Source of the DNA: a virus
Lineage: Duplodnaviria; Caudoviricetes
Virus record (IMG/VR): IMGVR_UViG_3300037361_000044
Span: 126,299 to 190,298 of that record
Strand: one strand, 5' to 3'
Length of the DNA: 64,000 nt
Each line of letters begins with the position of its first letter. The stretch's first letter is position 1. Position numbers and translations under genes: made by a program. Under the pieces are notes generated by a model. That model made no database searches. It was not told where the DNA came from and saw only the letters and a program-made list of their open reading frames with translations. Shown piece after piece: positions 4,578 through 54,640 of this stretch.

Positions 4578-6023
4578 ATGAAAACCGCCGGACTCATACT
4601 GGACCTGTACGACAACCCGAAAGACCTCAGCAGCATCTACCTCACTCTGGATGAGGTTCCCGAGATGGTGAAGTCGGCTCAGGTTCTCAGCTCTGTGGAG
4701 CTGGACCAACTGCCAGACACCGCTTTTGCTTTGGTGCTGATGGAGGGTGAGTCACGTCTTCGCAAGTACGCTTGCATTGATGGTGGCGGCACCGAGGTGA
4801 ACGTGCAGTACTTCCTGCTACACGGACACAAGCTGCCTGAAGAGGCGCAGAAGACTGCTGCGGCGAACTTGATTACAGCTTGTGGTTGGTATGGCATCGA
4901 GCCGCCGCCCGAGCTGGAGAAGATCGCACTGGGTTTGAATGGCTTGATGACGGCGGCGATGGCGCCTTCGTTGCTGAAGGGCACGCACCAGCAGATCAGC
5001 ACAAACATGGCTGGGGCATCTGCTGGAGGAGGTCGTGTTATGCCGCTGTTGGAGCAGCAAACGCTAGGGCGCATGGCGAAGAGTGCGGAGGCTTCGGGTA
5101 CGGCGCTGATGCCGAGCCAGGATGCCGGGGATTTGGGGGCAGCCGTTGCTCGAGGGCGTCCTGGCACCACAAACACCAGCGCCCAGAAGTCAGCAAGTAC
5201 AGGGCACCTTGTTCCTGGCCACAATGGCGAGAAGGGCGACGTGCTTGAGCAGGCGTTTGGTGTTGCTGGCACGCAGTACCAAAAGGCACCACAGACACCG
5301 GTGCAGGCGCTGCGGCCGCATGTGGATGTCACTGGCAAGCAGCCACCGAAGAAGTTGGAGACCAAGATGGCTTCCGTCTACGCCTACGAGAACGTATTTC
5401 CACTCGATGACTACGCGCAGGTGAAGCAAGCTTCCGCGTACTTTGATGCCAACTTGCCAGCAATGCCCCCGTCGATGCGACACGAGTTTGCTGTACACAT
5501 GGTGGGTAGGGCTTCCGAGTTAGGCATAGAGTTCAGCAAGGAAGCTGCGGCGTACGGCTCTACGGAATTTGCCGAAGATGAGCAGCTTCAAGCAGCCTTG
5601 GACATGCGCCGCCCGTTCCTGTCGAAGGAAGCCTCCGCCGCGGTGGACGAGCTCTACGCGCAACGTGCGGCACTGGGTCCAGCGATGTACTGCGAGCTGT
5701 TGGAGGGGATCGATAAGGTTGCTGAGATCGAGTGGCGGTACGACCGCGCCATCTTGGACCCTTACGCCTCCACGTTTGGCGTGAAGGTGGCGGAAGCTCA
5801 CGAGACTTGGACGCACGCAAACGACTACGTCACCAAGAAGCAGATGGAAAGCTTTGCTGTCACTGCCGCGTTGGCCCTTCGGGATGACTACGGCGATGAC
5901 TTCGTGAAGGATTTCCAGAAGGACCCGTGGGGGATCTTCAACTCGTTACCACTTCCGCAGAAGGTTCGTATCGCTCGCCGCGCCAGCGATAACAGCGCCA
6001 CGGGCATGCACGATGTCCAGTAA
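4578..6023 (+). CDS. Putative head-assembly/internal head protein, K-x-A-rich
   Basis: GGAGAGG RBS; at least 12 K-x-A motifs; first gene of the portal operon. Confidence 0.6.
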   Translation: MKTAGLILDLYDNPKDLSSIYLTLDEVPEMVKSAQVLSSVELDQLPDTAFALVLMEGESRLRKYACIDGGGTEVNVQYFLLHGHKLPEEAQKTAAANLITACGWYGIEPPPELEKIALGLNGLMTAAMAPSLLKGTHQQISTNMAGASAGGGRVMPLLEQQTLGRMAKSAEASGTALMPSQDAGDLGAAVARGRPGTTNTSAQKSASTGHLVPGHNGEKGDVLEQAFGVAGTQYQKAPQTPVQALRPHVDVTGKQPPKKLETKMASVYAYENVFPLDDYAQVKQASAYFDANLPAMPPSMRHEFAVHMVGRASELGIEFSKEAAAYGSTEFAEDEQLQAALDMRRPFLSKEASAAVDELYAQRAALGPAMYCELLEGIDKVAEIEWRYDRAILDPYASTFGVKVAEAHETWTHANDYVTKKQMESFAVTAALALRDDYGDDFVKDFQKDPWGIFNSLPLPQKVRIARRASDNSATGMHDVQ

Positions 6024-6816
6024 AGAAGAGCTGTTCGATAGGATCCTCGCTAGCGTCAAGTCCAGGCAGCCCAAGCTACCGCTGGACGAGGAGCCCACAG
6101 CCGTAGTTGAGACCGCTCAGGGCGATGAGTCCGCCGCAGGCTTGCCCGCACCCCGCGAGGAGCAGTACAAGACGGCAGCGGCCACTCCGGAGAACTTCCT
6201 GCGGAATACCGAGACGCATCCCATCATCCTGGACCTGGTTCTGCTGAACAAGTACGGGGTTGATTGGTTGGGGTGGGAGCCTGAGACCTTGGTGGCAAAG
6301 CTCCAAGAGGACTTCCACACGTTCACGGTGGCCGACGTCAACATTGAGAAGATGCAGGCGTGCAAGGTGCTGCACCTGGTTGACGACTTTTGGTTGCGTT
6401 GGGAGGTGTTTCTCCCCTGCGTGGCAGCCTTCAACGGGCACCTGGCGGACTTCGACAACATGCAGGTGCCGACTGTGGCCGAGTGTATGTTGGCCGTAGA
6501 TATTGCCAACCGTATCCGTGACGACGTGCAATGGAGCGGTGAGCTCAAGACGTACTTGGCGGTGGTCCACAAGCATGACAGCGAGTTGGTGCCGCAGGCG
6601 CCCCTCGAGTTCGTGACGGTGGATACGGACGACCTGCACGTCGACTGTGAGGAGGTACGCCGCAGGTGGCCGGAAGTTAGGGCGAAGGGCCAGCTTCCGT
6701 CAGGTGCTAGTATCGAGGACGAGCAGCTGCGAAAGATGCTCGGCTCCTGGGTGTACCTGGAAGCCATGCGTACTCGTCTTCAATCTCAACTTCTGACGGT
6801 GTTGAAGCATGTTTGA
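6013..6816 (+). CDS. Hypothetical protein (portal operon)
   Basis: Coupled ORF with coding-like codon usage. Confidence 0.75.
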   Translation: MSSKEELFDRILASVKSRQPKLPLDEEPTAVVETAQGDESAAGLPAPREEQYKTAAATPENFLRNTETHPIILDLVLLNKYGVDWLGWEPETLVAKLQEDFHTFTVADVNIEKMQACKVLHLVDDFWLRWEVFLPCVAAFNGHLADFDNMQVPTVAECMLAVDIANRIRDDVQWSGELKTYLAVVHKHDSELVPQAPLEFVTVDTDDLHVDCEEVRRRWPEVRAKGQLPSGASIEDEQLRKMLGSWVYLEAMRTRLQSQLLTVLKHV

Positions 6817-7963
6817 CCCAGACTTTTCCGAGCCAGCCATGAACGGGTTCCTTGAGCAGCTTCAGAAGGAAGCGCTCACGGCGCCTGTTTCCAGCATCAT
6901 GTCAAGCTTGGCGCGGCCGGGGCGGTTGCACGCCATGCAGGCGGGCATGGGTAGCGGTATGGGGCTAGGTCTAGGTGCTGGCCTGCTTGGCGGAGGAGCC
7001 CTGGGTGGTGTCAAAGCGTACAGGCAAGCTCGCGCCGAGGGCGCCAGTCCACTCTCGGCGGTGGGCAGTACCTTGGGCGGTGTGGCGCACGGGGCTCTGC
7101 GTGGCGGCGTCACTGGGGTAGCCCTCGGCGCCGGCGGCGGTGCTCTGCTAGGTGCAGCCGCACCTACGCAGGTCATCTCAGCGACCAAGCAGCTGGCGAA
7201 GATGCCCGGTAAGGCTGGAGAGTTCTCCAGGTTTGGGCAAAGGCAGGTACACAGCGTGACTGGCTGGAAGCCAGGTGGTGCAACGGCGTCCATTGAGCAG
7301 ATTGGAGCTGGAGCCCACGGCGCGCGCGAAACGGCAAAGGGGGCACTTGCAAGCCTTGGCAAGTCCCCGGAGATGGATGCGCTCGTGGCGGCGCATTCGA
7401 AGGGGCCTGCGGAGGTGGCGGCTGCTCGCCAAGCCTTGCAGGCAGGGCCGGGCGCGAAGCTTACACAGGCGCACAAGGCACTGCGCTCGGCAGAGACGTC
7501 GCAGCAGATGGGCCTGACCAGCCTCCCCGGGTACGCCAAGTCCATTGGCAAGAACGGTTTGATCCCCACGGTGGCCACAGGTGTCAAGGAACAGTGGCAG
7601 GCCTCGGGGCCAAAGGGCAAAGCCATGATGCTCGCGCTCCCCGCTATCTCGGCCGCTGGCACGCTGAAGGCGCCGGATCAGCCAGGAGGTAGAGGAAAGG
7701 GAGAGACAATTGGCAGATTGGCGGGAAGTACATTAGGGTCTCTCGCAGCTCCTATGTCTCTCACCGGTGGTCTGCTGCTTGGTAGTGCGTTCGAACACGC
7801 GGGTGGAGCCATGGGTAAGGGCGTTGACAAGCTGCGCGGCAGGCGCCCCGCGGTACCACAAGACCCGACTCCTCCTCCCGCCACGGCGCCAGGGGATACT
7901 GGGCAGGCGGCAGTTGAGCACGTTTACGGCACCGGCTACGGCGGCGCTGGAGGGTTGGAATAG
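6809..7963 (+). CDS. Glycine-zipper, membrane-associating putative internal virion protein
   Basis: N-terminal FLEQLQKEA then GxxxG runs (GMGLGLGAGLLGGGALGG; GVALGAGGGALLG). Confidence 0.6.
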   Translation: MFDPDFSEPAMNGFLEQLQKEALTAPVSSIMSSLARPGRLHAMQAGMGSGMGLGLGAGLLGGGALGGVKAYRQARAEGASPLSAVGSTLGGVAHGALRGGVTGVALGAGGGALLGAAAPTQVISATKQLAKMPGKAGEFSRFGQRQVHSVTGWKPGGATASIEQIGAGAHGARETAKGALASLGKSPEMDALVAAHSKGPAEVAAARQALQAGPGAKLTQAHKALRSAETSQQMGLTSLPGYAKSIGKNGLIPTVATGVKEQWQASGPKGKAMMLALPAISAAGTLKAPDQPGGRGKGETIGRLAGSTLGSLAAPMSLTGGLLLGSAFEHAGGAMGKGVDKLRGRRPAVPQDPTPPPATAPGDTGQAAVEHVYGTGYGGAGGLE

Positions 7964-7966
7964 TTC

Positions 7967-10003
7967 ATGAGTATCCCAGGCTCGTTGCAGATGGGTGGTG
8001 CTGGTGGCGCGTCGCGTTTTGCGCAGACGCGTGGGCGTATGGGCAACGGAATGAACCAAGGGGTGAACTACCCCAGTCCGTTCTTCGACATTGCGCATAC
8101 GTACCTGCCTACGACGGTCAAGGCGATGTTCCGGTGGTGCCGGTACTACTTCATGACCAACCCCATCATCAATGCCACGGTCTTCAAGCTCTCCGAGTAC
8201 CCGATCACGGAGATTCAGATCGACCATCCAGAGCCCTCTGTGGCCAGACGTTGGAAGGAGTACTTCGAAGACCATCTGAATTACAGGGCGTTTCAGATCG
8301 AGTGCGGGCTCGACTACAACACGTATGGCAATTGCCTGTCGAGTTTGAGTTTCCCGTTCAAGAAGTACTTGACCTGTTCGTACTGCCAGCACCAGGCGGA
8401 GGCTAAGCGTATCCGTCCGCACTGGGTGTTCACCAACTACGAGTACCGACTTAGCTGTCCGAAGTGCGGGCAGGTCGGCACTGCCGCGGCCAAGGACATC
8501 TACTTCAAGAATGAGGCCGGCATCTCGATGATGCGCTGGAGCCCGGAGGACGTTGAGATCAGCTACTCTGCTCTAACAGGCGAGCACACGTACTTCTACA
8601 ACATCCCGCCGTCTGTTCGTAACGACGTCATCATCGGTAAGAAGGATGCCGTGGAGCAGGTGCCAGAGGTGTTCATCCAGGCACTACGCCAGCAGAAGGG
8701 CGTAGTGTTCTCGAAGGAGCTGTTCTTCCATCTCCGTCGTCCGACGCTGGCTGACCAGGACCGTGGCTGGGGGATCCCGCTGCTGCTGCCCTGTTTGAAG
8801 GATACGTTCTACCTGCAGATCATGAAGAAGGCGCAGGAGGCTATCCTCCTCGAGCACATCGTGCCCCTTCGTATCCTGTTCCCGCAGGCAGGCTCTGGGA
8901 CCTCGGATCCATACACATCGGTCAACCTGGTGGATTGGCGTGACCACGTGGCTACGGAAATAGCGCGTTGGCGCATGGATCCCAACTACATCCCAATCCT
9001 GCCGTTACCCGTTGGTAACCAGACGATTGGTGGGGATGGCCGCGCGCTGCTGATGGTTCAAGAGATGCAGACGTTGAGTGAGCAGCTCATCAACGGTATG
9101 CAGGTACCTCTGGAGTTCATCAAGGGTGGCTTGAGCTTCTCTGGTACGAACGTGTCTATGCGCATGCTCGAGAACCAGTTCATCATCTACCTGTCCCGCC
9201 ATCGTCGTATGGCGCGGTGGGTCATGCGCAGTGTCGCTGATTACCTTGGCTGGCCGCTGGCGGACATCCGCTTCAAGCCCTTCAAGATGGCTGATGACAT
9301 CCAACGGAAGGCCTTCCTCTTCCAACTCAACCAGGCCAATAAAGTCAGCGACACCACGCTGCTGGCTGACTCCGATCTGGACCAGACGCGAGAAGACCAA
9401 ATCATGGAGCGCGAGACCGCTGCCCGTATCAAGGCGACGGAGAAGCAGCAGCTTGCCAACGCGGAACTGCAAGGCAAGCAGCAGGCCATCATGATGAAAA
9501 TGCAGGCCAAAGCTCAGCAGGAAATGCAAGCCGCGTTGGCTGCCCCCTCCGCTCCGGGTGAGCCTGGTGGGCCAGATGCTGGCGCAGCGCCCCCCGGTGG
9601 GCAAGGTGGTGCACAAGTAGCTCCCGACAGCCCAATGGGGGCCATGCAGAGTCCACTCAATGCTGGACAAAACATGGGCATGGGCACCAGCCAATCCCCA
9701 GGGCAGTCGCCCCAGATGGGTGGCGCCAACATCATCGTGATGGCGCAGACCATCGCTCAGGAGCTCTCCACGTTGAATGCGGGGCAGCAGCTAATTGCCA
9801 TCAAGAATCTGCGTATGCAGTCCCCAGAGCTGGCGGACTTGGTGATGCAGAACTTGCGGGCAATGCCGCAGCAGTCCAACGACCCAATGGCAATGGGAAA
9901 CCCCAACGCGCAGCTGGGCATGAATGGGCAAGCAGCGCAGCAGGTGGATATGCGACCCTTGCCTGAGAAGCTTCCGCCTCGTCGCGCTGCAGGCATGGTC
10001 TGA
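7967..10003 (+). CDS. Portal protein with Zn-ribbon insertion and low-complexity C-terminal tail
   Basis: YFMTNPIINATV, DYNTYGNC, FFHLRRP, GWGIPLL, LINGMQVPLEFI portal-like blocks; CSYC...CPKC insertion. Confidence 0.8.
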   Translation: MSIPGSLQMGGAGGASRFAQTRGRMGNGMNQGVNYPSPFFDIAHTYLPTTVKAMFRWCRYYFMTNPIINATVFKLSEYPITEIQIDHPEPSVARRWKEYFEDHLNYRAFQIECGLDYNTYGNCLSSLSFPFKKYLTCSYCQHQAEAKRIRPHWVFTNYEYRLSCPKCGQVGTAAAKDIYFKNEAGISMMRWSPEDVEISYSALTGEHTYFYNIPPSVRNDVIIGKKDAVEQVPEVFIQALRQQKGVVFSKELFFHLRRPTLADQDRGWGIPLLLPCLKDTFYLQIMKKAQEAILLEHIVPLRILFPQAGSGTSDPYTSVNLVDWRDHVATEIARWRMDPNYIPILPLPVGNQTIGGDGRALLMVQEMQTLSEQLINGMQVPLEFIKGGLSFSGTNVSMRMLENQFIIYLSRHRRMARWVMRSVADYLGWPLADIRFKPFKMADDIQRKAFLFQLNQANKVSDTTLLADSDLDQTREDQIMERETAARIKATEKQQLANAELQGKQQAIMMKMQAKAQQEMQAALAAPSAPGEPGGPDAGAAPPGGQGGAQVAPDSPMGAMQSPLNAGQNMGMGTSQSPGQSPQMGGANIIVMAQTIAQELSTLNAGQQLIAIKNLRMQSPELADLVMQNLRAMPQQSNDPMAMGNPNAQLGMNGQAAQQVDMRPLPEKLPPRRAAGMV

Positions 10004-11699: not shown

Positions 11700-11700
11700 G

Positions 11701-12957: not shown

Positions 12958-12958
12958 T

Positions 12959-22825: not shown

Positions 22826-24868
22826 ATGCCCCAGCTATTCCGCACCACGCAGCTCGAATTCAACAAGACGGCCGCAGAGACCGCGCTGCCTGAGGAGCCC
22901 AACGCCTGGCCCGATGCGGTGCTCCAGGAACTATACAAGCAGGTACCATACTTGGCTGACTTCGACCTCGAGGTTGTAATGACCGCGGTCGATGGTGAGC
23001 GCGGGTACGGTCTTGGGCATGTGGAGGTCTCGAGCAAGACCGAAGCGCCAATGACCGCGCCAAGTGAGCAGCTTCAAGCTGCGGGCATTCGAAAGTCCCG
23101 TATTCCCGTGATCATCAAGGACAGCAAGCTGCTGCCCTTTGACATCCTGGTCACCGACGACTCCAAGGCGCTGCCCCTTACCGAAGGGCGACTGCGCCAG
23201 GCCATGTTCCGCCCGCAGAACTTCGACGTTACCTCGAAGACGCCCGGAGACCAGTCCATGATCGGCCAGCTGTACCCGCCTTTCCGCCAGAACTACGGGT
23301 TCGGTGGTGGTGGCGTTGCCACCAGCGCAGGCATGGGCGGTAAGACGGCTTCGGTCATGTTCAAAGAGGCGTCTGCTTCCATCCTGACGGGGGTGCTGTC
23401 CACGGCGAATGTCACGGACCTGGCTGCCTTCGGAGAGGCGCTACAGGACGAGATGCTGAAGCAAGCCTTCATCGAGAACCCAGGTGCGTACGACGCGCTA
23501 GTGAAAGTGGCGGAGGCCAAGCCCTCGAGTACTGAGAAGCTGGCGTCGGCCATCCGCTACGGAATCCGCCCCAGTGTTGAGCAGATTGGCAGCGTCGGGG
23601 ACGGGACGTATTTCCGTAAGACCGCAAGCCACCATGCGTGGGACCCCAGCACGGAGATCCTCGACCGCGGGGAGCTGGTTGCTAGGTACGGGGTGAAGTT
23701 GGCGTTGGCCGCAGATACCGCCGGTGCCTTGACCCTCGCGCCCGACGGCGCAGGCCCCGTTGCCGAGGAGCCCGCACCGGGAGCTGGTGCCGGTCCGATC
23801 TCAGCCCCAGGCATGTACCAGGTGCAGACCACGGATGGGCAATCCCTTGCCGGTGCTGTCATCACCAATCTGCTTGATGTGGACGGTACGGCGCTTCCCA
23901 TCTCCCTATTTGTGGATGGTCAGCACGCCGCGGTGCAGTCCGACATCTCTGGCAGCCCCATTGGGGAGTTCTCCCCTCCTGGAGCAGTCCCGGCCGAGCA
24001 GGCCAGTGGTAAGGGCGTGTTCTACTTCGAGGCTGGCGGTATCCCCACCGCCACCATACCGCTGTCCCTTGGGGCCACTGTGGCGCCGCTGCCTGGCGCC
24101 GAGGACACGGCTCACTTCGATGCCCAGACCTTCGATGGCCGTCAAATCAGCGTCAGCATTCAGGGGTATGTCGCTACCGTGGTCGGTGTGGAAGACCAGA
24201 TGATCATTCCCGACAGCTGGCAGTGGATCCCCCTCGACGCCGCGGAGGAGGTCACGCTGGCGGAGACCCCCGGAGAGGTGGGCAAGGTGGCTTCCGTCGC
24301 ACAGCGTTGCACCACGGTGGACATCCTGGCTGGTGGTGTCGATAGCTATGCGCTGCGGGGCATGCCGGTTGAGAAGCTGGCGTCCGATGATCGGAACTTC
24401 CTGACGCAGGACCAGGCGTTATTCGTTTTGGTTGGCTGCGGGGCCGACCCGCAGCAAGCCCAGCAGAAGCTGGCGCAGGCGCTTTCCGTACCCTCCCGCA
24501 AGACCAGCATGCAGGTTGCCAATCAGCTGAAGATGGCCGCAGAGGTGCGGGGTGAAAGCTACCTGCAGGCTTCGAAGTACTTGGACAATATGCCAGTACA
24601 TCGGGTGCGCATGTGGAAGGAAGCCGCGGTCATCCCCGACCCGGTTGCCGTGGACACCGTGCTCAGCCTGGGCTTCCTAAATCCCGAGAATATCTCCGCC
24701 TTCGTTGGGTACCTACCCACACTGGATGAGGCACAACGGCGCATGTGCGAGCTGCTGATTGGGGCACGCTTGGGTCTTCGGGAGCTGTCCGATGGGGCGC
24801 TCGAGCGTGCCATCCGGGCAGTAGAAGATGTAGTTGAAGGCCTCAAGGTCATAGCTTTCCAGGGCTAA
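22826..24868 (+). CDS. Putative head/inner-body protein, K-x-A-rich
   Basis: AGGAGA RBS; 13 of 25 lysines in K-x-A (manual count). Confidence 0.6.
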   Translation: MPQLFRTTQLEFNKTAAETALPEEPNAWPDAVLQELYKQVPYLADFDLEVVMTAVDGERGYGLGHVEVSSKTEAPMTAPSEQLQAAGIRKSRIPVIIKDSKLLPFDILVTDDSKALPLTEGRLRQAMFRPQNFDVTSKTPGDQSMIGQLYPPFRQNYGFGGGGVATSAGMGGKTASVMFKEASASILTGVLSTANVTDLAAFGEALQDEMLKQAFIENPGAYDALVKVAEAKPSSTEKLASAIRYGIRPSVEQIGSVGDGTYFRKTASHHAWDPSTEILDRGELVARYGVKLALAADTAGALTLAPDGAGPVAEEPAPGAGAGPISAPGMYQVQTTDGQSLAGAVITNLLDVDGTALPISLFVDGQHAAVQSDISGSPIGEFSPPGAVPAEQASGKGVFYFEAGGIPTATIPLSLGATVAPLPGAEDTAHFDAQTFDGRQISVSIQGYVATVVGVEDQMIIPDSWQWIPLDAAEEVTLAETPGEVGKVASVAQRCTTVDILAGGVDSYALRGMPVEKLASDDRNFLTQDQALFVLVGCGADPQQAQQKLAQALSVPSRKTSMQVANQLKMAAEVRGESYLQASKYLDNMPVHRVRMWKEAAVIPDPVAVDTVLSLGFLNPENISAFVGYLPTLDEAQRRMCELLIGARLGLRELSDGALERAIRAVEDVVEGLKVIAFQG

Positions 24869-30942: not shown

Positions 30943-32277
30943 ATGAAAGGGCCAGCCATGAATGACTCACCCATGCAGACCATGCTGCAGCAACGCGACG
31001 CCCGCCCCATCCCCGGCGAGCACCTGGAAGTACTAGGCAAGCGCGCTGCCACAAGCTGGGTCACCGGTAAGTGCGCGTCGCTGCATGAGGCAGTTGTGGC
31101 GTCGGTCCACTCCGAGCGGCTTTCCCCCGAGCAGGTACGCCGAGTGGTTGAGTTTGCAAACCAGGATGCATACCAGCAGGAATTCCGCAAAGAAGGGCAG
31201 CACAAGGTGGTTCATTTCGATTGCGGACCGGCGGATCCGGCGCAGGTTCTCCAAGACTTGAATGACGGCGGAGGTGGGTCGGTGTACGATCAGGGCAACC
31301 TGGACTACAGGATGTCCCCATCCATGGCAAAATCCGCGTCACTCAGCCGTACCCCGACCACGTCCATGGACAAGACCGCTTCCGCCGCATCAGAAGAGCC
31401 AGCGGTGCCGGGCTTGCCCAAACTAACCAAGCTCCCCAGTTTGCCCAAGCTGGCATCGGAGTCCCCTTACGAGGACCAGCTCTGGGGCCTGTTTGGCGCC
31501 GAGTCTCCTTCGGTGCTCCCCATGGCGGAGCCCATGGGCCCGCTGATGGAGGTTCGTCACAAGCTGGCTGGCGTTCACAACGAGCTCGTACACGAAGTCA
31601 ACAAGCTCGAGCTCGACTACGTCGAGGTCAGCAAGGACCTGTACCACTCGGTGAAGCAGGCCTCGTTGGAAGGACACCCGCTGGGGGACATCGTCGCGGC
31701 CTGGGCTACGGTCAACACCGACCCGGTGTACGTGAAGGTGGCCTTCCAGCTACTGTCGCCTCAGCTCCGCAGAGACGGCGTGTTCGACAGTCTTGAGGCC
31801 ATCGGAGAGTCCCTGCAGAAGCAGGCATCGGTGGGCACCCCCAACCCGGAGCATCCCCTGGTGCAAGCTTACGGGGACTTCGTTGCCACACTGAACAAGC
31901 TGGCAACTGCTCGCGCGCTGATGGGTGAGTACGCAGAGGGCTTGGAGTCCGCCGACTTGCTGCTGAAACAGGCAGCTGGAGGGTTGGTTGGTGCCGTGGG
32001 AAAAGGGTTGTCCGCGGCCAGCAAGGGGATTGATACCGCGGCAAAGCCGGTAGCTCACATGCTGGTTGGTGGAAAAGACGCCAAGAAGTTGGCACCACTT
32101 TTGGCCAAAGGTACCAAGCTCACAGGCGGTGCTGCCGCGTTGCTGGCCGGTAACGCTGCTGTCCAAAACGTGACGGACCGTCCCGCTGTGCGTAGCGCAG
32201 TGCAGGCGGCGCAGAAGGTGGTACCTGGCACGGCCGCGTACAACGAGCGCCGCTACCGCAACCAGATGGGAATGTAA
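30943..32277 (+). CDS. Putative prohead core/internal head protein, K-x-A-rich with amphipathic C-terminus
   Basis: At least 10 K-x-A motifs; C-terminal KQA|AGGLVGAVGKGLSAASKG. Confidence 0.6.
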   Translation: MKGPAMNDSPMQTMLQQRDARPIPGEHLEVLGKRAATSWVTGKCASLHEAVVASVHSERLSPEQVRRVVEFANQDAYQQEFRKEGQHKVVHFDCGPADPAQVLQDLNDGGGGSVYDQGNLDYRMSPSMAKSASLSRTPTTSMDKTASAASEEPAVPGLPKLTKLPSLPKLASESPYEDQLWGLFGAESPSVLPMAEPMGPLMEVRHKLAGVHNELVHEVNKLELDYVEVSKDLYHSVKQASLEGHPLGDIVAAWATVNTDPVYVKVAFQLLSPQLRRDGVFDSLEAIGESLQKQASVGTPNPEHPLVQAYGDFVATLNKLATARALMGEYAEGLESADLLLKQAAGGLVGAVGKGLSAASKGIDTAAKPVAHMLVGGKDAKKLAPLLAKGTKLTGGAAALLAGNAAVQNVTDRPAVRSAVQAAQKVVPGTAAYNERRYRNQMGM

Positions 32278-32278: not shown

Positions 32279-32869
32279 ATGACGAACCCAGCAGAAAAGT
32301 TCTTGGTAGAGAAGCGAGCGTTTGGTTTAGGCGGGGCTGCCAACGCGGCAAAGAGCGTGGGTCGCGCTGTCAAACCCTTCGGGCAAGCTGCTGGTATGGC
32401 CATGGCCGGTGGCGTTGGTGCCGCTGGCTTTGCCGGTCTGGTTGGTGCCGCTGGCAAGCTGTTTACGGCTGCCACGAAGTCTCGAGACTTTCGGGCAATG
32501 CTCGAAGCCAACCCGGATCTGAAGGAGCACCAGAAGATGGACCCCGGTGGGTTCAATCGCATGTACTCGTCCCTGCACACCATGGCTCCGGAGTTTGCCA
32601 AAGAGCCCATGGTTGCTGGCTACTACATGCGGCAAGGCATGGAGGCCCCGCTTGAGGGGCGTGGTCAGGTCGCTGTGCAGGCGATGAACGCGCGCAAGCC
32701 CCAGCAGATGGGACCGGTCTCGGATATGGCTCTGCAGGGCTACATGCGTAGCATGGGTGGCAAACCAGACGGCGGTAAGCAGCTGCTCCGCGGGCAGACG
32801 AAGACCACATACGCGCCGGGTGATGAGGGTGTGGTTCAACGCGTAGAGACTACCGACAACCACTACTGA
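32279..32869 (+). CDS. Putative internal head protein with glycine-zipper segment
   Basis: FLVEKRA|FGLGG...AGGVGAAGFAGLVG. Confidence 0.6.
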   Translation: MTNPAEKFLVEKRAFGLGGAANAAKSVGRAVKPFGQAAGMAMAGGVGAAGFAGLVGAAGKLFTAATKSRDFRAMLEANPDLKEHQKMDPGGFNRMYSSLHTMAPEFAKEPMVAGYYMRQGMEAPLEGRGQVAVQAMNARKPQQMGPVSDMALQGYMRSMGGKPDGGKQLLRGQTKTTYAPGDEGVVQRVETTDNHY

Positions 32870-32870: not shown

Positions 32871-34586
32871 ATGATCAAGGTCAGCCTCTTTCAAGGTAGC
32901 GAGGAGTACGGTCCAGCAGCGGTACCGCTCTTTGGCGCGGCAGACAGCTACTTCGAAAAGGTAGCTTCTGCCTCGTTGCTACCGGAGGTGTCGACGTACA
33001 TAGCCCAGTTGCAGCCACGTAACGACTCGCAGTACGTCTTGGTCAACGCCATGGGCGCTGGCGAGTACTACGGGTCGAACGTCAACGGCGACCGCTTCTC
33101 CGAAGAAGCCCTGATCCATTCGCCAAACGATTGGAAGGGCATCCCCGTCTACGACAAGGTGAAGTCTGCGGACTGGGCCTACGGGTTTCCGACCTTCTAT
33201 GGGGCGCATGTATTCCCTCATCATCGCAACAAGGACGCCAAGCGTGCCCTTGGTTTCGTTGAACTAGCCGCTTGGAACCCGCACATGAAGCGGGTCGAGC
33301 TTGTGACAAGGCTGGACAACGCGCTGTGTTTGAAGTTCGGCGGTGAGGGCATCTGGGACAAGCTCAAGGCTGGCATGTTCCCTGACGTCAGCATGGGAAC
33401 GAAGGTACCCTTCGACACCTGCTCGATCACGCTGGACAAGGAGCTCTACTACAAGGCTTGGGCGACGTACGACCCCAAGAAGCACAAGAGCCCAGGCGAG
33501 GCCATCCTCGAGTACCACAAGAAGCTCAAGGCCAAGGACGGCGTCGGCATTCGTGGTGTCAGCATCACACGCGCTGATTACTCCAAGTACGCGCGCACCC
33601 GTATGAACTTCATCCTCCCAGATGGCCGCAAGGTCTGGGTGGACAACGACTTCCCTAAGTTCTTCGACCTCAGCTATGTCTTCATGGGCGCTGACCGCAT
33701 AGCCAAGGCCATGCTGAAGATCGCAGACGCGGGGCGGGTCTACTACTTCATGGGCTCCGCCGAGCTGGCTGAGAAGCTGGGGATGTCGGACGATGACGAC
33801 GTGCAGGAGAAGACCGCAGCGAGTAAGCAGGCCACTCCCAAGTCTGCCGAGATGAACAAGGAAGTCATCCCCAACCAGCTCGCGGGGAAAGCCGTCCCCC
33901 TGTTGACGGCAAACGAGCCAGACCTGCCGCAGGATGTGCTCGGCGCCATGGGGGCTGCCGGGCTTGACTCGGCCCTGACTACTTCGGCAGGCCTAGGCAT
34001 GGTCCTTCGTCCACGGGAGTTCCAGCGCATTACCCTCATCTGCCTGGGAAAGCGCGACGTTGCGGACCAACTGGATGCCTTAGGTCAGGTTTTCCCCAAG
34101 GTGGAGGAGCGGGATCCGCTGCCCATGGAGGGGAGTAGCTTCAGCCCCGGGCTGGCCAGCATCCTGGCACCGCTGCTGGGGGACCGCTCCGCGTTCGGAC
34201 CCGTCATCGAGCGGCGGGTTGTGGTTGTAGCCGGCACAACCCCCAAGGATACGAAGAAGGACACTTCCCATTCCTCTGAGCTTCTCCGTAAGATTGGAGC
34301 GGCCTACAACGGCTACCGAGACAGCCTCATGCAGTTTGTACCAGAAGCACAGGACTTGATCGAAGCGTCCACATCGCCTAGCGATGCTACGCTACGCAAG
34401 CTTGCTGGAGTACCTGCTGAGGAACTTTTTACACCACTGTCCGTCCAGTACCTAACTCATGCCTTCCTGGATGAGCTTGGAACTCCGGATCAAGAGGTGG
34501 TAAAACATGCACACGCCAGCGTGCAGAGGGTACTCCCCTTGGCGACCACGCAGCATCAACAACGAGTAGGAGTATTGCAATCATGA
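32871..34586 (+). CDS. Prohead maturation protease (HK97/assemblin-like serine protease)
   Basis: SNVNGDRF, TFYGAHVFPHHRN, VSMGTKV..DTCS, FFDLSYVFMGAD; upstream of scaffold and capsid genes. Confidence 0.78.
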   Translation: MIKVSLFQGSEEYGPAAVPLFGAADSYFEKVASASLLPEVSTYIAQLQPRNDSQYVLVNAMGAGEYYGSNVNGDRFSEEALIHSPNDWKGIPVYDKVKSADWAYGFPTFYGAHVFPHHRNKDAKRALGFVELAAWNPHMKRVELVTRLDNALCLKFGGEGIWDKLKAGMFPDVSMGTKVPFDTCSITLDKELYYKAWATYDPKKHKSPGEAILEYHKKLKAKDGVGIRGVSITRADYSKYARTRMNFILPDGRKVWVDNDFPKFFDLSYVFMGADRIAKAMLKIADAGRVYYFMGSAELAEKLGMSDDDDVQEKTAASKQATPKSAEMNKEVIPNQLAGKAVPLLTANEPDLPQDVLGAMGAAGLDSALTTSAGLGMVLRPREFQRITLICLGKRDVADQLDALGQVFPKVEERDPLPMEGSSFSPGLASILAPLLGDRSAFGPVIERRVVVVAGTTPKDTKKDTSHSSELLRKIGAAYNGYRDSLMQFVPEAQDLIEASTSPSDATLRKLAGVPAEELFTPLSVQYLTHAFLDELGTPDQEVVKHAHASVQRVLPLATTQHQQRVGVLQS

Positions 34587-35356
34587 CCGCACCTGGAATG
34601 AATTCCCTGTTGTCCGAGGTTTACGGAAACCAGACGCACACCAACGAAGACCTCTCCAAGGAAGCGAACCTTCAGTTCTTTGCACAGCTCTGTGAGCACC
34701 ATGCCATCGACTGCGAAAAGCTGAGCGAGCCCGAGATCGCTGACCTCTTCAAGGTTGCCATGGATCTCAAGCAGGCGGCTGAGGAAGAGTCTGCCAAGGA
34801 AGAGGCCAAGGAAGAGGGCGGCAAGAAGAATCTTGCCCCGCCCTTCGGCAAGCACGAAGCTGGCGAGAGCAAAGAGAAGGAAGACAAAGAGGAGAAGAAG
34901 AAAGAAGCTGCTGTTGCGGAGTGGAATGAGAAGCGCGCGGCACACGTCAAGGTAGCGGAAGCGGATGCCACCGGTCGCATCATGGCGCACGCCCTGGTCG
35001 ACGAGCTTCGCAAGATCGCCGCCGCGCAAGAAGCGGAAGCCTCCGCTCCCAACCCTGCTGAGAAGGCAGCTTCTGTAATTGCCGCAGCACAAGCCAAGAC
35101 GGCAGCCGCAACGCCCACCACGAACTCGGCGACGCCGAACTTCGATGAGTTGGCAGCCGTGCACGCTATCGACATGCTCAAGCAAGCGGGTCAGGACGGG
35201 GACGTGGCGCAAGCCCGTGTTTCCGCGGTCTTCACCCTAGGCCTGCAAGAGAGTGCCAAGACCGCTGCGGCATCCACTCCGGACGCCGCGCTCACCCTGC
35301 GTGCTTTGGAGTTCTGCGAGGCTGCCGGTTACCCGGTGGACTGGACCAAGGCGTAA
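34583..35356 (+). CDS. Putative scaffold protein, K-x-A-rich
   Basis: Helical, charged, at least 10 K-x-A; between protease and MCP. Confidence 0.6.
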   Translation: MTAPGMNSLLSEVYGNQTHTNEDLSKEANLQFFAQLCEHHAIDCEKLSEPEIADLFKVAMDLKQAAEEESAKEEAKEEGGKKNLAPPFGKHEAGESKEKEDKEEKKKEAAVAEWNEKRAAHVKVAEADATGRIMAHALVDELRKIAAAQEAEASAPNPAEKAASVIAAAQAKTAAATPTTNSATPNFDELAAVHAIDMLKQAGQDGDVAQARVSAVFTLGLQESAKTAAASTPDAALTLRALEFCEAAGYPVDWTKA

Positions 35357-35382: not shown

Positions 35383-36915
35383 ATGGAGCTGTTCAGCCGT
35401 ATGCAAAAAGTCGCAGATGCCACATCGATACCTTTCGCCGACTCGGCGGCAGATACAGCTGCGGCAGCTCCACTCCCTGGCTTAGCGGTGGGTAACAAGC
35501 CCGCACCCGGTCAAACGGGACCTAAGGGCTTGGCTCCCCGCACCAACTACTCCCGCGTCAACACCGGGTCTCCGCTACAGGCAGACGCCGGGGCATCCTC
35601 CCAAAAGGGCATGCCACCCGACAACCAAAACTTTCTCCCTCCGAAAATTGCACACAGAGAGGTTCCTATGTCTGGAACGATGGCTCATCGACTCACGATT
35701 CACGAGATGGTCAAGGCTGCCGCAGTCGGCACCCTTGAGCAGGCTGCAGTGACGGTCGAAGCGGAGCGGCAGCTAGCCAATCTTGGCGAACCTACCGCAA
35801 CCTCCGTGAAGACTGCTTCTGCGGCTCCCTCCTTGGTCCCGAACTCCATACCTACCGATTACGTCGAGAAACTTGCAGGTGCCTGCGAGTATATGCTCGA
35901 CGAGCTTCGGGAGAAGGCGGCAGCGGATTCTGCCAACGGCCCCGGTAAGGGTCCGAACGCGCTTCAGGTCCTCGAGGCCACTTCCGAGAACAACGAGTTC
36001 AAGGACGGACATCAAGGGCAAGCAACTCCGGCGCACGTGGTCCCCAAGACCCCGGGTACGCACAAGCCCGCAGAGACCCCCGCGGGTCCCGCTACGGCAC
36101 TTGACACCAACGCAGCGGAAGCTGTCGGTGGTAAGCAGAAGGTCAGCTCTGTTACCGCTTCTGAGCTGCGTAAGGCGGCGGCCGACATCAAAGGTCTTGC
36201 TGGTAAGGCCATGAACGTAGTCAAGGCGCACCCCGCGGCGGCAGCCGGCGCAGCAGGCCTTGCTGGCGGCGCAGCGCTTGGTCGTATGTCGAAGAAAGCG
36301 GAGTTCCCCGCTGAGCTCTTCGCCAAGAAGGACGACAAGAAAGAGGACAAGAAGGACCCCAAGGACAAGGGCAAAGAGGAGCCTAAGGACAAGGGAGACG
36401 ACAAGGGCGAGAAGAAAGAAGCTTCTGCAGTCGATCCCCGCCTGGTAGACTACTTCTTGTCCATGACCAAGGCTGCAGAAGACGCCATCAACCCCGCGCA
36501 GATCTCCGCAGGAGCCGCAGTTCCTCCAGAGACTAGCGCTTCGGGTGAGTCCGGCGGCGCCCCTGCTGGTGGTCTTCCCCAAGGCCCTACCGGTCTTGTT
36601 GGCTCGAATGAGTCGGCAATCAACTACACCAAGGGGCAGGCGAAGGCCCAGGTGAAGCCGCAGCTGAGTGCGGTCCTAACCGAGCCGGCGCTCTCTGCCG
36701 CTCACGACACCACGCTTGGCAAGGCGTTCGACAACACTGGCGCTGCCGGTGTGAAGATCTCCTCGATGCGTTCTGCTGCAGCACGTGCTGTAGTGGAGAA
36801 GTTGGCAGAAGCTGAATGTGCCAAGACCGACCCCAAGGCGAAGAAGAAGGAGTCGGCGGGCATGGGCAACTTCCAAGCACCACCTGTCAGCGGCGCGGCC
36901 ACTGGCGCAATGTAA
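35383..36915 (+). CDS. Putative scaffold/internal head protein, K-x-A-rich, low complexity
   Basis: About 10 K-x-A; possible second start ATG 35668 with GAGG. Confidence 0.6.
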   Translation: MELFSRMQKVADATSIPFADSAADTAAAAPLPGLAVGNKPAPGQTGPKGLAPRTNYSRVNTGSPLQADAGASSQKGMPPDNQNFLPPKIAHREVPMSGTMAHRLTIHEMVKAAAVGTLEQAAVTVEAERQLANLGEPTATSVKTASAAPSLVPNSIPTDYVEKLAGACEYMLDELREKAAADSANGPGKGPNALQVLEATSENNEFKDGHQGQATPAHVVPKTPGTHKPAETPAGPATALDTNAAEAVGGKQKVSSVTASELRKAAADIKGLAGKAMNVVKAHPAAAAGAAGLAGGAALGRMSKKAEFPAELFAKKDDKKEDKKDPKDKGKEEPKDKGDDKGEKKEASAVDPRLVDYFLSMTKAAEDAINPAQISAGAAVPPETSASGESGGAPAGGLPQGPTGLVGSNESAINYTKGQAKAQVKPQLSAVLTEPALSAAHDTTLGKAFDNTGAAGVKISSMRSAAARAVVEKLAEAECAKTDPKAKKKESAGMGNFQAPPVSGAATGAM

Positions 36916-36929: not shown

Positions 36930-37286
36930 ATGGATAAGCTAAGCGCAGCACAACAGTGCGAAATTCTCGAAGAGGTCCCCCGCGTTCTGCGTGAAGTGGC
37001 CGCGGAGAGAGATCTGTACAAGGAGGCCTTCCTGAAGGGGGCCAACCGTGCGCGGATCGAAAAGGTTGCTTCCCAGATGGTCGATAAGGGCCTGAAGGGC
37101 GGTACGGTACAGTCGGTGGCTGATGAGTTGGAGAAGCAGGCGCAAGCCGGCTCCCTCAACCTGGACGTCACCGAGCAAGCAGTGGAGCTCGTGGGCCCGG
37201 ACATGGGCAAGCACGCACATCTATCCGACGAGCTCTCGGGTTCCGCAGGGTCCAGCGACCTGGAGCGGTTTCTTACGTGCGGCTGA
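36930..37286 (+). CDS. Small scaffold-like protein
   Basis: ATG 36930 after GGAG; EKVAS, EKQA, GKHA. Confidence 0.65.
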   Translation: MDKLSAAQQCEILEEVPRVLREVAAERDLYKEAFLKGANRARIEKVASQMVDKGLKGGTVQSVADELEKQAQAGSLNLDVTEQAVELVGPDMGKHAHLSDELSGSAGSSDLERFLTCG

Positions 37287-37313: not shown

Positions 37314-37838
37314 ATGTCGACGATTCAGAAACTAAATTTCGAGCCCATCAGCGACGTTCTGCCAATCCAGAGGAAAGACCTCTCGCTGGCAGACAAGTCG
37401 CTGGCGGAACCTTCCAACGCACAAGCACTCATCGACGGTGAGTGGATGACGGTTGACGGCAGCTACAAGTGGGCACGTGCCGCGGCTATCGGGACCCCCG
37501 GTACTGCTGCCACGGTCCGCAGCTTCCCCGTCTTCTTCGAGAAGGGCCGTTCGGACCGTCTCGGTATGGCGGAGCGCAAGACCACTTGCCTCTTCCGTGG
37601 CGAGTACGAATTCGACACCCGCGTCTACGACGCCAGTGCCACCGTTGGCTCGGGCGCCCCCATCAGCTCGGTCATGCAGCCCCTCAAGGTTGCGACCATC
37701 ACCATCGGCAGCCGTAACTTCGTTGGCCTCGTTGGCCACGGTGGCGCGGCAGACACCAACCCAGTAGTGGGTTATGTAACTCGGCTTCCCTCCAGCAATG
37801 GTGGTAAGCTTCGATTCATCTCGGGGTACCGCAGCTAA
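37314..37838 (+). CDS. Putative head decoration/cement protein
   Basis: AGGAGGAG RBS; beta-rich 174 aa immediately upstream of MCP. Confidence 0.55.
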   Translation: MSTIQKLNFEPISDVLPIQRKDLSLADKSLAEPSNAQALIDGEWMTVDGSYKWARAAAIGTPGTAATVRSFPVFFEKGRSDRLGMAERKTTCLFRGEYEFDTRVYDASATVGSGAPISSVMQPLKVATITIGSRNFVGLVGHGGAADTNPVVGYVTRLPSSNGGKLRFISGYRS

Positions 37839-37883: not shown

Positions 37884-39005
37884 ATGGCTGTTCCGGCGAG
37901 TGTATTGAACGACCTCTTTGCTTCGAAGCTCAATAGCAACGATGGCAAGGAAAAGATCGCCGAGTATGGTGGTAGCTACATCCGTGACCGCCTCCGCGAG
38001 GTGAGCTTTGCTCGCAAAGTCATCCCGCCGGAGCAGGTCACGCGTGCTGACTGCCAGCGCTCGGTAAACCACGACACCCTGGTCAAGATCATCGACATCG
38101 AGCCTAAGAGCCGAGCAATGTCGATTACCTTCCGGGGGCAACCCGAGGCTCGCTTCATTCGAGGCGACCGTGCGGAGATTGCATTCTTCACCATCAGCTC
38201 TGAGATGTTCCAAAAGACGGAGCAAGAGCTGCTGGCCTACGAGATGCCCATCACCAAGATCATCGAAGAGAATTCGGTGAAGGACATCCAGGAGATCGAG
38301 GACCGTGAGTTCACGATCCACATCGAGGCTGCTGTGCAGGCTCTCCAGACCGAGGCGAACGGTGGAACCCCCGCTGCTCTCCACTACGGTACGGTTGGTC
38401 AAGGCGCTGTCGAGTTCTCCGTCCGTAAGGGCGAGCTCGCACGCAACGCCACTGCCAACTCGGCAGAGGTACTCCCAGTCAGCCGCGTCGACATCGTCAA
38501 CCTGTTCAAGATGGTGGACGGGAACCGACTCCGTGCAGAGCGTCTGCTCATGACCGAGGTCGATTGGGACGATATCCTCTCCTGGACGGTGGAAGACTTC
38601 GGTGACCGTATTCAGTCGGAAACGACTGTCGACGGTTACAAGTACAACACGCTCTTGGGCAAGGCGTACATCCGTACCATCAAGACGGACATCCTTCGTC
38701 CCGGTAACATCTACGCGTTCACCAAGCCGGAGTTCTTCGGGAAGTTCTACGTACTGAACAACACGAAGTTCTACATCGACAAGATCGCCAACACGATCAC
38801 CTTCCAGGCTTGGGAAGACATCGGGATGTCGGTCATCAACATTGCGTCGGTTCGAAAGCTCGAGCTCTACTCGGGTGACGCCAACCCGACGACGGATGCG
38901 GATGACCTCCTGGACAACTTCATCCCACGGTCCGAGGAAGCCTTGGGCGCAGTCAATAACAGGGTTGACGCAGGGTTGAAATTTCCTCAGGTATCGCAAT
39001 ACTGA
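37884..39005 (+). CDS. mcp: Major capsid protein (HK97 fold)
   Basis: AAGGAGA RBS, strong codon bias, IRDRLREVSFARKVIPP, KDIQEIEDREF, EFFGKFYVL, WEDIGMSVIN; canonical position. Confidence 0.85.
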   Translation: MAVPASVLNDLFASKLNSNDGKEKIAEYGGSYIRDRLREVSFARKVIPPEQVTRADCQRSVNHDTLVKIIDIEPKSRAMSITFRGQPEARFIRGDRAEIAFFTISSEMFQKTEQELLAYEMPITKIIEENSVKDIQEIEDREFTIHIEAAVQALQTEANGGTPAALHYGTVGQGAVEFSVRKGELARNATANSAEVLPVSRVDIVNLFKMVDGNRLRAERLLMTEVDWDDILSWTVEDFGDRIQSETTVDGYKYNTLLGKAYIRTIKTDILRPGNIYAFTKPEFFGKFYVLNNTKFYIDKIANTITFQAWEDIGMSVINIASVRKLELYSGDANPTTDADDLLDNFIPRSEEALGAVNNRVDAGLKFPQVSQY

Positions 39006-43384: not shown

Positions 43385-43400
43385 GGCTGAGGAGACCGTC

Positions 43401-51359: not shown

Positions 51360-51371
51360 GGAGTTTTGCTG

Positions 51372-52199: not shown

Positions 52200-52233
52200 G
52201 CCCTGCATGGTAGATTGGTAGAAGGAGAACGAC

Positions 52234-52998: not shown

Positions 52999-53378
52999 TG
53001 GCAGCCAGTACCAACCCCTTTACGGTGCAAGGCACCTTGCTCTTTCCCCCCGACGAGGGGCAGGCGCAGGTGTCTATCCCGTTCGGTCTCAGCAATCAGT
53101 TCACGTCCGTCCTCGATACGAGGTTGAACATGACTGGAGCTGGGACCACCGCGGTTCCATTCGGTTCCGTGGCAAACGCCAAGCTCTTGTTGCTGGAGTA
53201 CGAGGCCGCGGCAGGCGCAGCCCCGATCAACCTCAACGTGAATGGCGGCACGGACGACCTGGAGATTGCCCCTGGAGGCATGCTCCTCATGGCAAGCCCT
53301 ACGCCCCAGGCGGGCTGGGCAAGTCTTTCAATCGTCCGGACAACTGATGCGGTAGTTCGCGTTCGCCTCCTAGGCTGA
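52998..53378 (+). CDS. Small beta-rich virion protein
   Basis: Coupled to tube gene (TAATG). Confidence 0.65.
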   Translation: MAASTNPFTVQGTLLFPPDEGQAQVSIPFGLSNQFTSVLDTRLNMTGAGTTAVPFGSVANAKLLLLEYEAAAGAAPINLNVNGGTDDLEIAPGGMLLMASPTPQAGWASLSIVRTTDAVVRVRLLG

Positions 53379-53390
53379 TATCCTACGGGG

Positions 53391-53996: not shown

Positions 53997-54034
53997 CCTG
54001 TCCTTCTGGCGAGGCCGCGGGTACACTCATCGTG

Positions 54035-54640
54035 ATGGCACCACATCCAGCCCTACTCACCAAGTCCGCGGAATGGTCCCCCATGAAGGGAGGGCTCCCT
54101 CTGGCGGCGCTGGCCGGTGGCCTTCTGCTGTATCACGGCATGAAGGGCAGCCAGCAACGGGATCAGGTGGGTGCCGAGCAGCAAGCGTTGGCACAGCGGG
54201 CGAATACTGCCGCAAACAATGCAGGTGTCGTCGCATCCCTTCGAGGTGGGGCGCCCCTGGACTCCGTTGGCTCCGCTATCTACAACAACGAGAGGGCGGC
54301 CAGTGGCGAGATCGGTGACTCCTTCATGTTCGACAAGGGAGCTGCCGCGCACATTGTTGAGGCTGGCCGATTGCTCGCAAAACGTGCGGGCATTGGCGGG
54401 GCAGTACTTGGTGGCATCAAGAACCTGGCAGGTGCTGGGATGGCGAAGATCCCCAAGGTGGGTTTGGGCACCAAACTCCTGGCTGGTGGGGCAGCGTTAG
54501 GCGCTGGCTATGGCGCCATGAAGGCAGGTAAGGGCCTGTACAACTACGGAATGAAGCCATCAGAGACGCGTACGCTCGGCGGTCACAACGCCGGGTTGCC
54601 GCAGTACACGAACCAGTTTGGTGTTCCAGAGATGGGTTGA
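54035..54640 (+). CDS. Putative internal virion protein with amphipathic/glycine-zipper modules
   Basis: TKSA|EW..., AKRA|GIGGAVLGGIKNLAG; likely ATG 54035. Confidence 0.6.
   Translation: MAPHPALLTKSAEWSPMKGGLPLAALAGGLLLYHGMKGSQQRDQVGAEQQALAQRANTAANNAGVVASLRGGAPLDSVGSAIYNNERAASGEIGDSFMFDKGAAAHIVEAGRLLAKRAGIGGAVLGGIKNLAGAGMAKIPKVGLGTKLLAGGAALGAGYGAMKAGKGLYNYGMKPSETRTLGGHNAGLPQYTNQFGVPEMG

Follow-up and report, generated by a model that had tools for sequence, protein, structure and literature searches.

The prohead protease gp21 of phage T4 degrades the proteins gp22, gp67, and gp68 and also trims off short leaders (PMC5694885). The gp245 protease of phage SPN3US cuts after the sequence A-X-E, which occupies positions P3-P2-P1, prefers Ser at P1′, and acts on propeptides with several copies of its motif (PMC10052503). 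In herpesvirus assemblin, an N-terminal protease is joined to a scaffold, and cuts after Ala occur both at a release site within the linker and at a maturation site close to the C-terminus, as in the pseudorabies virus sites YLQA-T and VQA-S (PMC4498786). Here we describe a short motif, K-x-A, that is enriched in head-associated proteins encoded by a 64,000-nucleotide stretch of DNA (hereafter the window) from a virus of the class Caudoviricetes (IMG/VR record IMGVR_UViG_3300037361_000044, positions 126,299 to 190,298). We consider it likely that K-x-A, or more fully [L/M]-x-K-x-A followed by Ser or Ala, is the P3-P2-P1/P1′ substrate motif of the prohead protease of this same virus, whose candidate gene is located at 32871..34586 on the plus strand and whose product is predicted to carry a gp21/assemblin-type fold.

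Distribution and conservation of the K-x-A motif

Expected counts and z scores were obtained from 2000 composition-preserving shuffles of each protein. The three best proteins, encoded at 22826-24868 (13 copies versus 3.2 expected, z 5.9), 30943-32277 (13 versus 3.5, z 5.7), and 4578-6023 (13 versus 3.6, z 5.5), are enriched three- to fourfold. The open reading frame (ORF) at 36816 (5 versus 0.7, z 5.5), the candidate protease at 32871-34586 (11 versus 4.2, z 3.5), and the protein encoded at 34583-35356 (11 versus 5.0, z 3.2) follow. In contrast, the 13 copies in the product of 35383-36915 (9.2 expected) are not significant from composition alone (z 1.5), and the large terminase (27295-29130; phrog_675) has a single copy versus 1.4 expected (z -0.4). 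When the 222 ORFs of the whole genome are ranked for K-x-A, the first five places are all taken by head-associated proteins of the window. For the seven head proteins together there are 79 copies versus 29.4 expected (z 10.3). Pooled Poisson p values are 7e-12 for the three best proteins and 3e-14 for the seven, although both sets were picked by their K-x-A counts.

A sequence-only reading of the window had claimed that K-x-A saturates head-associated proteins, and its manual counts are reproduced here: 13 of the 25 lysines in the 22826-24868 product lie in the motif, the proteins at 4578-6023, 30943-32277, and 34583-35356 carry 13, 13, and 11 copies, and only one of the 26 terminase lysines is involved. 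The sites that it singled out are likewise present: the protease contains FEKVAS and EKTAASKQATPKSA, and residues 23-26 of the major capsid protein (MCP) read EKIA. Enrichment after correction for composition holds for most of the head proteins but not for the 35383-36915 product. The estimate that about 14 genes are marked in this way was generous. Nine have invariant sites, a separate alignment shows conserved sites in the 4578-6023 protein, and those at 41912 and 43287 are enriched for the strict form of the motif, whereas several others have one site that is kept in close relatives only.

Every a-x-b residue pair was also scanned, as were pairs with 0, 2, or 3 residues between them. K-x-A was by far the top pair for the three best proteins (39 versus 10.2 expected, z 9.9), with K-x-x-S (z 7.6) second and A-S next. 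The same scan of the remaining proteome gave no comparable K-x-A signal. In a blind scan of 118,400 protein-by-pair tests, K-x-A held three of the six top places, each in a different protein, although none of the tests passes Bonferroni correction (p 3e-5 to 9e-5). An identical scan of T4 served as a positive control. [L/I]-x-E occurs 16 times versus 5.8 expected in gp22 (z 5.0), where L-x-E is the top pair, and is enriched in gp21 (z 3.1), gp68 (z 2.4), and gp23 (z 2.2), with no enrichment in the T4 portal, gp24, or tail sheath.

Sites in the head proteins share more than the two fixed residues and conform to an extended motif, [L/M]-x-K-x-A-[S/A]. The form K-x-A-[S/A] is found 38 times in the seven head proteins versus 6.4 expected (z 13.2). 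In the same proteins, R-x-A, K-x-S, K-x-G, K-x-T, K-x-V, E-x-A, Q-x-A, and K-x-x-A are unenriched, and the reversed order A-x-K (z -3.3) and the adjacent pair K-A are depleted. Ser occupies P1′ at 21 of 78 head sites versus 14 of the 248 K-x-A sites in the rest of the proteome (p 1e-6). Relative to these other sites, head sites also favour Ser, Ala, or Glu at P1′ and Ala or Val at P2′, and P5 is hydrophobic with a preference for Leu or Met (p 4.5e-5), while the middle residue is free. Self-BLAST revealed no internal repeats, and flanks beyond P5-P2′ resemble one another no more than random windows do, which indicates a short linear motif rather than a domain repeat. The motif Lys and Ala residues use the same codons as other Lys and Ala residues of these genes, with the four Ala codons evenly represented. 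This ordinary codon usage points to selection on the protein level and rules out a motif in the DNA itself. Of 58 gaps between neighbouring sites, 26 measure 20-32 residues.

To follow the motif through evolution, relatives were taken from IMG/VR. Four whole genomes (G001-G004, with GC contents of 46.1, 60.5, 53.8, and 52.2%) were put together from regions, and the genome of Salmonella phage Arash (53% GC) was assembled likewise. The closest cultured relatives, which are Arash and the Vibrio phages D69, D181, and D148, are far removed, with MCP identities of 27-29%. Orthologues of the 22826, 30943, 34583, and 36816 proteins span 35-68% identity and 46-60% GC, and all are enriched, even those at 35-45% identity. 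In the alignments, the Lys and Ala residues of the motif have conservation values of 0.81-0.88 versus 0.45-0.58 for other Lys and Ala residues, while the middle residue varies (KRA, KEA, KKA, KQA, or KAA). Sites have been both gained and lost in variable regions. Several of the conserved ones are isolated islands within indel-rich linkers, such as (E/D)-K-T/V-A at protease residue 314.

Among invariant a-x-b pairs in 67 orthologue groups from five genomes, K-x-A shows the strongest over-representation, with 27 occurrences versus 3.9 expected; the next-best ratio is 4.0. All 27 are located in nine head proteins: five each in the 30943, 34583, and 35383 proteins, three each in those at 22826 and 36816, two each in the protease and MCP, and one each in the portal and the 37314 protein. 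There are no invariant copies in the RNA polymerase, terminase, replication, or tail proteins of these groups.

Head proteins also lead the ranking in other genomes. In G001, the orthologues of the 30943 and 4578 proteins rank first, followed by a 738-residue protein that is probably the 22826 orthologue. Genome-wide in Arash, gp220 (10 versus 2.9 expected, z 4.5) and gp225 (z 4.2) lead, followed by gp223 (z 3.0) and gp222 (z 2.4), and these four genes are syntenic with the genes from 30943 through 36816. An unbiased pair scan of Arash places K-x-A first in gp220 and gp225 and K-x-x-S first in gp223. The Arash sites (IVKVAS, IEKTAS, MEKAAS, MTKQAS, and LVKEAS) resemble those described here. 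Vibrio phage D69 (44.5% GC) shows enrichment in proteins 0268, 0270 (whose gene takes the place of the protease gene), 0271 (10 of 18 lysines), and 0273. A copy near the MCP N-terminus is present in all three lineages, at K24 here and at residues 27-29 of Arash gp226 and D69 0275. Thus, the motif is real after correction for composition, confined to head-associated proteins, and deeply conserved.

The candidate protease and its predicted substrates

The product of 32871..34586 is 571 amino acids long. In its AlphaFold2 model, residues from approximately 14 to 280 form a beta-rich domain and residues 286-338 a disordered linker, while the C-terminal half is helical, with helices spanning 338-530. 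The N-terminal domain superimposes on T4 gp21 (5jbl_A) with Z 8.6 and a root-mean-square deviation of 3.2 over 141 of 165 residues, and the next fold scores Z 6.0; four herpesvirus proteases give Z 4.5-5.6. The modelled fold is the one that characterizes capsid maturation proteases of MEROPS clan SH (S21, S77, S78, and S80). A Foldseek search of the PDB also places gp21 first, albeit weakly (E 0.08). Matches in BFVD include Gp19 of phage G (E 1e-7), proteins of PaBG and phiRSL1, and several proteins annotated as prohead proteases. The family is large, with more than 900 homologues in metagenomes.

Residues that are invariant among 28 homologues and Arash gp222, which is 30% identical, include H118, S174, A32, D182, D266, and D275. 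The assignment of this gene as the protease in the sequence-only reading, with the Ser of a VSMG sequence as the residue to mutate, is upheld to the extent that the modelled fold is of the gp21/assemblin type and that this residue corresponds to the invariant S174, which is positioned on a predicted strand. Ser174 (nucleotides 33390-33392) and His118 (33222-33224) are the candidate catalytic residues. H83 and H216 are not retained once Arash gp222 is added, and because H216 is missing from that protein, a Ser-His-His triad is unsupported here.

The enzyme carries conserved K-x-A sites of its own. K30-V-A32 (32958-32966) and K314-T-A316 (33810-33818), the latter in the linker, occur in all 28 homologues, and K510-L-A512 (34398-34406) in 25 of them. 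In Arash gp222, K30-Q-A32 aligns with the first of these sites, and the linker contains two copies of the motif. We propose that the protease is the N-terminal domain of a precursor fused to the helical C-terminal domain, and that it would probably release itself at A32, at A316 in the disordered linker, and at A512. In the assembled prohead, the multi-site core or scaffold proteins encoded at 30943, 34583, 36930, 35383, 4578, and 22826 would then be chopped into peptides of mostly 20-40 residues that are able to exit the shell, whereas single-site proteins such as MCP (after A26) and the 32279 product would lose short N-terminal pieces.

Some protease homologues (P0024, P0042, P0060, P0061, P0100, and P0120) reach 945-960 amino acids and contain Hint and/or LAGLIDADG domains, which are signs of inteins. 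Similar signs are seen in a helicase encoded at 1111-3882 on the minus strand, where LAGLIDADG_3 and Hom_end domains are located within ResIII/SNF2, and in terminase orthologues from L002 (3855-6737), L005, and L018, which are 957-960 residues long versus 611 here.

One predicted multi-site substrate is encoded at 30943..32277 (plus strand), upstream of the protease gene. This 444-residue protein is modelled as all-helical with long disordered stretches, and residues 110-197 and 346-430 are of low confidence. Of its 13 sites, some lie within helices and others in coil or at the ends of helices. The orthologues have 10-15 sites, with z of 4.7-6.5 even at 35% identity, and in L010 the motif accounts for 10 of 14 lysines. 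Conservation is 0.81 for Lys and 0.85 for Ala of the motif versus 0.45 and 0.49 for others, and five sites are invariant across five genomes. The protein is probably a degradable core or scaffold component. Directly downstream of the protease gene, 34583..35356 (plus strand) encodes a scaffold-like protein that has a high content of Ala, Lys, and Glu and carries 11 sites, of which five are invariant. The strict motif occurs seven times versus 1.2 expected, the orthologues have z of 2.2-4.2, and the syntenic proteins Arash gp223 and D69 0271 are similarly enriched.

Two strongly enriched proteins are encoded elsewhere in the window. The 481-residue protein encoded at 4578..6023 (plus strand), with 13 sites, opens a run of genes that ends in the portal gene. 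Its G001 orthologue has 16 sites versus 4.2 expected (z 6.2), and the majority of sites are kept in three of four genomes. The protein from 22826..24868 (plus strand) has its sites in clusters at residues 173-293 and 487-600, with nine copies of the strict motif versus 0.5 expected. Ten orthologues have 13-17 sites (z 4.2-8.3), and seven sites are present in all ten. Complete cutting would leave maximal pieces of 76 residues for the 4578 protein, 44 for the 34583 protein, and 87 for the 30943 protein. The 22826 protein would retain two site-free blocks of 159 and 196 residues, which suggests that it is possibly processed like a polyprotein. An ESM Atlas search with this protein gave no usable feature matches, and its own model has a pLDDT (confidence score) of 0.35.

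The remaining candidates, mainly from the head module, are all encoded on the plus strand. The Ala-rich protein from 35383..36915 has five invariant sites among its 13, and its orthologues reach z of 1.7-3.2. One of the invariant sites, NKPAPG, is unlikely to be cut. The small protein counted above from a long ORF starting at 36816, which overlaps 35383-36915 by 100 nucleotides, probably begins at the ATG at 36930 (36930..37286), because a GGAG sequence precedes this codon and a product of about 118 residues fits the orthologues of 117-121 residues. It has five sites, three of them invariant, and its orthologues as a whole are 117-155 residues long with z of 3.0-4.6. In MCP (37884..39005; phrog_2522, E 1.4e-12), the site K24-I-A26 (37953-37961) is invariant in five genomes and is the probable removal site of an N-terminal propeptide. 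A second invariant copy at residue 300, deep in the chain, is probably within the folded body. The 196-residue protein from 32279..32869 has one N-terminal site, K12-R-A14, with a copy within a few residues of this position in all four related genomes. The 174-residue protein encoded upstream of MCP at 37314..37838 has a single invariant site, K125-V-A127. The portal is unenriched (3 versus 2.6 expected) with one invariant copy at residue 440. Finally, two Ala-rich proteins encoded at 41912-43384 and 43287-45071 are candidates for further substrates, as they have four copies of K-x-A-[S/A] versus 0.53 expected (p 0.002) and five versus 1.2 (p 0.006), respectively. Sites 54 and 83 of the latter recur in relatives. 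None of the motif-rich proteins, these two included, matches a family in Pfam or PHROGs.

Other proteins were removed from the set. The RNA polymerase, a single-chain beta-beta′ enzyme encoded at 14514-20915, is unenriched (11 versus 13 expected) and has no invariant site. Two further proteins did not hold up as members. One (39069-39662, plus strand; z 2.75), encoded directly after the MCP gene, is an HNH endonuclease (phrog_2255) and is probably a mobile insertion, since the four related genomes yielded no orthologue. The other (59345-60181, plus strand) is a low-complexity AKKA protein with 14% Lys, 23% Ala, KKA/KPA repeats, and a histone H1-like appearance, whose K-x-A count derives from the repeat. 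Separately, the 254-residue protein encoded at 52234-52998 (plus strand) has 33 Ala but no Lys residues. Its orthologues in G002, G003, and G004 (72-96% identity) also lack Lys, whereas that in G001 has four and the Arash homologue 10.

The sequence-only reading had further proposed that N-terminal leaders ending in K-x-A target proteins to the capsid. This role is unsupported. A copy within the first 45 residues is present in 49 of 223 proteins (22%), and thus an N-terminal K-x-A is unspecific by itself. Conserved first sites are located 9-33 residues from the N-terminus in the 22826, 30943, 32279, 32871, 34583, and 35383 proteins and in MCP, but the leaders that precede them have nothing in common beyond the hydrophobic P5, which all sites possess. 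N-terminal copies that recur in most relatives are restricted to the products of head genes and a sigma factor. This sigma factor (G000:C1:26952-27722, outside the window) carries F-L-D-H-K-Q-K-V-A-S at its N-terminus and keeps its site in three of the four related genomes, with the site absent in G001 and in Arash gp10.

The window itself makes up the final 64 kb of a 190,298-bp record that is rated 100% complete, and has a GC content of 56-62%. Its head module follows the order terminase (27295), protease (32871), scaffold-like protein (34583), and MCP (37884), and this order is kept in Arash (gp220-226) and D69. The portal (7967..10003, plus strand) was assigned by homology to an Arash ORF at 128120-129859 (29% identity over 552 amino acids, E 8e-87). 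This ORF is directly upstream of the gene for the Arash RNA polymerase gp206, which is the expected place of the portal Gp204 named in the Arash paper.

Alternatives to cleavage by the head-module protease

Several observations weigh against cleavage by this enzyme. The protease model is of only moderate confidence (pLDDT 67), neither the protein nor any of its 28 homologues matches a protease family in Pfam or PHROGs even at E 10, and alignment of its profile with T4 gp21 by hhalign gives a probability of 0.2%. A comparison of the profile with PDB sequences also returned nothing. Several conserved sites are within predicted helices, and NKPAPG has Pro at both P2 and P1′; not every site can therefore be a cut site. 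Moreover, Arash gp220-225, including the homologues gp220, gp222, gp223, and gp225, were reported from virion preparations with high per-protein coverage, which fits poorly with complete degradation (PMC10585845). This last point is softened by the fact that the preparation held proteins of 116 of 272 annotated features, many non-structural enzymes such as metabolic enzymes among them (PMC10585845).

Some of these same observations would suit an alternative in which K-x-A-[S/A] serves docking or assembly and is bound without being cut. Core proteins might, for instance, attach through it to the inner capsid surface, the portal, or the C-terminal domain of the protease. Sites inside predicted helices of the 30943 protein and the protease, the spacing of roughly 20-32 residues, which could reflect periodic contacts, and the recovery of the Arash homologues from virions would all be compatible with docking. 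We nevertheless regard it as unlikely. Conservation at positions i and i+2, with any residue allowed between them and a small one at P1′, is the pattern of strand-wise binding in a protease groove, and it matches L-x-E, A-x-E, and V-x-A (PMC10052503, PMC4498786). In addition, invariant sites are located at the boundary of the protease domain and the linker, and the scaffold of T4, which is cleaved, yields the same statistics. We are not aware of phage scaffolds with a repeated docking motif of this sort.

It is less probable still that the sites are cut at another bond or by another enzyme, such as a host protease. The HK97 protease gp4 cuts after Lys (K103-S104) and provides a precedent for a cut after the Lys of K-x-A. 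However, the residue after the Lys would then be a free P1′ followed by a P2′ that is strictly Ala, which is unusual, and the known enzymes with the gp21 fold read P3 and P1. A candidate for a second enzyme is a DUF2201 metallopeptidase-like protein with a VWA domain (10320-11699, minus strand), whose gene adjoins that of a MoxR-type AAA ATPase partner, the two spanning 10320-13026. Nevertheless, the enriched genes surround the gene for the gp21-fold protease rather than that for the DUF2201 protein, and the gp21-fold protease itself has invariant sites.

A further alternative holds that the Lys is a target of head-specific modification or cross-linking by acylation, methylation, or isopeptide bond formation. 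The strict conservation of this residue would be expected, and the HK97 capsid, with its isopeptide cross-links through Lys, offers a precedent. However, no modifying enzyme is evident in the module, a protein can have 13 sites in disordered, fast-evolving linkers, and the flank preferences resemble the pattern of protease subsites. We consider such a role very improbable. Lastly, a mere by-product of Ala/Lys-rich helical composition (the proteins with the motif have 11-22% Ala) or of internal repeats, such as the repeated units visible in Arash gp223 and D69 0271, is hardly credible, because the shuffles correct for composition, A-x-K and K-A are depleted while K-x-x-A and R-x-A are unenriched, the proteins here lack internal repeats and have unrelated flanks, enrichment persists from 44.5 to 60.5% GC, and Lys and Ala are conserved but the residue between them is not.

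Cleavage by the head-module protease thus remains the likely function of K-x-A. The sequence-only reading had envisaged an analogue of gp21 and gp175 with an Ala-ending specificity, and the form of the motif, the protease fold, and the T4 control agree with it, whereas its targeting component is unsupported. Cleavage itself, the position of the cut after Ala, and the fate of the fragments are what we infer from sequence patterns.

Relation to known maturation systems

The proposed system resembles that of T4, where the substrates of gp21 are gp22, gp67, gp68, gp23, and the internal proteins, in the fold of the protease domain (Z 8.6), in the location of its gene in the head module beside genes for scaffold-like proteins, and in the P3-x-P1 form of the motif. 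The gradation is also alike, with core proteins strongest, the enzyme moderate, and MCP showing little enrichment, here with its N-terminal site. The two differ in that the motif is K-x-A rather than [L/I]-x-E, and no sequence similarity of the enzymes is detectable by hhalign. The enzyme described here has 571 residues with a helical C-terminal domain of about 280 residues versus 212 residues for gp21, and two strongly enriched predicted substrates have their genes far outside the head module (4578 and 22826).

phiKZ gp175 and SPN3US gp245 (MEROPS S80; A/S/G-X-E) share with the present case a short P3-x-P1 motif, Ser at P1′, multi-copy propeptides, and action on many head proteins, although here this action is predicted. 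Those enzymes also trim their own C-terminal part, as the conserved sites suggest for the enzyme of this virus. Moreover, an RNA polymerase is packaged in the virion in both groups (PMC10052503, PMC5694885; for Arash, PMC10585845). However, the present motif has Ala instead of Glu at P1 and Lys at P3, and the virus belongs to another clade with a phrog_2522 MCP and a single-chain beta-beta′ polymerase.

With herpesvirus assemblin (pUL26; MEROPS S21), the likeness extends to the architecture of the precursor. A protease is fused to a scaffold-like domain, with one site in the linker (comparable to the R site) and another about 60 residues from the C-terminus (comparable to the M site). The cut is predicted to follow Ala and often to precede Ser, and the fold is related (Z 4.5-5.6). 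In contrast, P3 is Lys here and aliphatic in assemblin, and the number of sites and substrates far exceeds the two to four sites of herpesviruses.

Among the papers that could be searched, none reported K-x-A as a prohead-protease motif, and as far as we could find, Lys at P3 is new. The genomic location of the two distant substrates also permits a broader but tentative proposal. The 4578 protein is encoded beside the portal gene and the 22826 protein beside the gene for the virion RNA polymerase. Conceivably, although we would not favour it, a large and mostly uncultured clade of phages possesses an Ala-Ser protease with a herpesvirus-like fusion, and these two proteins act as cleavable loading scaffolds or polyproteins that load the prohead with the polymerase and other cargo before being dismantled.

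The prediction is directly testable, because the cultured Salmonella phage Arash and the D69-like phages of Vibrio have the same motif. In genomes where nearly all structural genes are hypothetical, the motif offers a means to list head-internal and scaffold proteins from sequence alone. If confirmed, the enzyme would represent a third specificity class of gp21-fold phage prohead proteases, with Lys at P3 and Ala at P1, beside those that recognize L/I-x-E and A/S/G-x-E. The P1/P1′ pair that it would share with herpesvirus assemblin bears on the common ancestry of capsid maturation in phages and herpesviruses.

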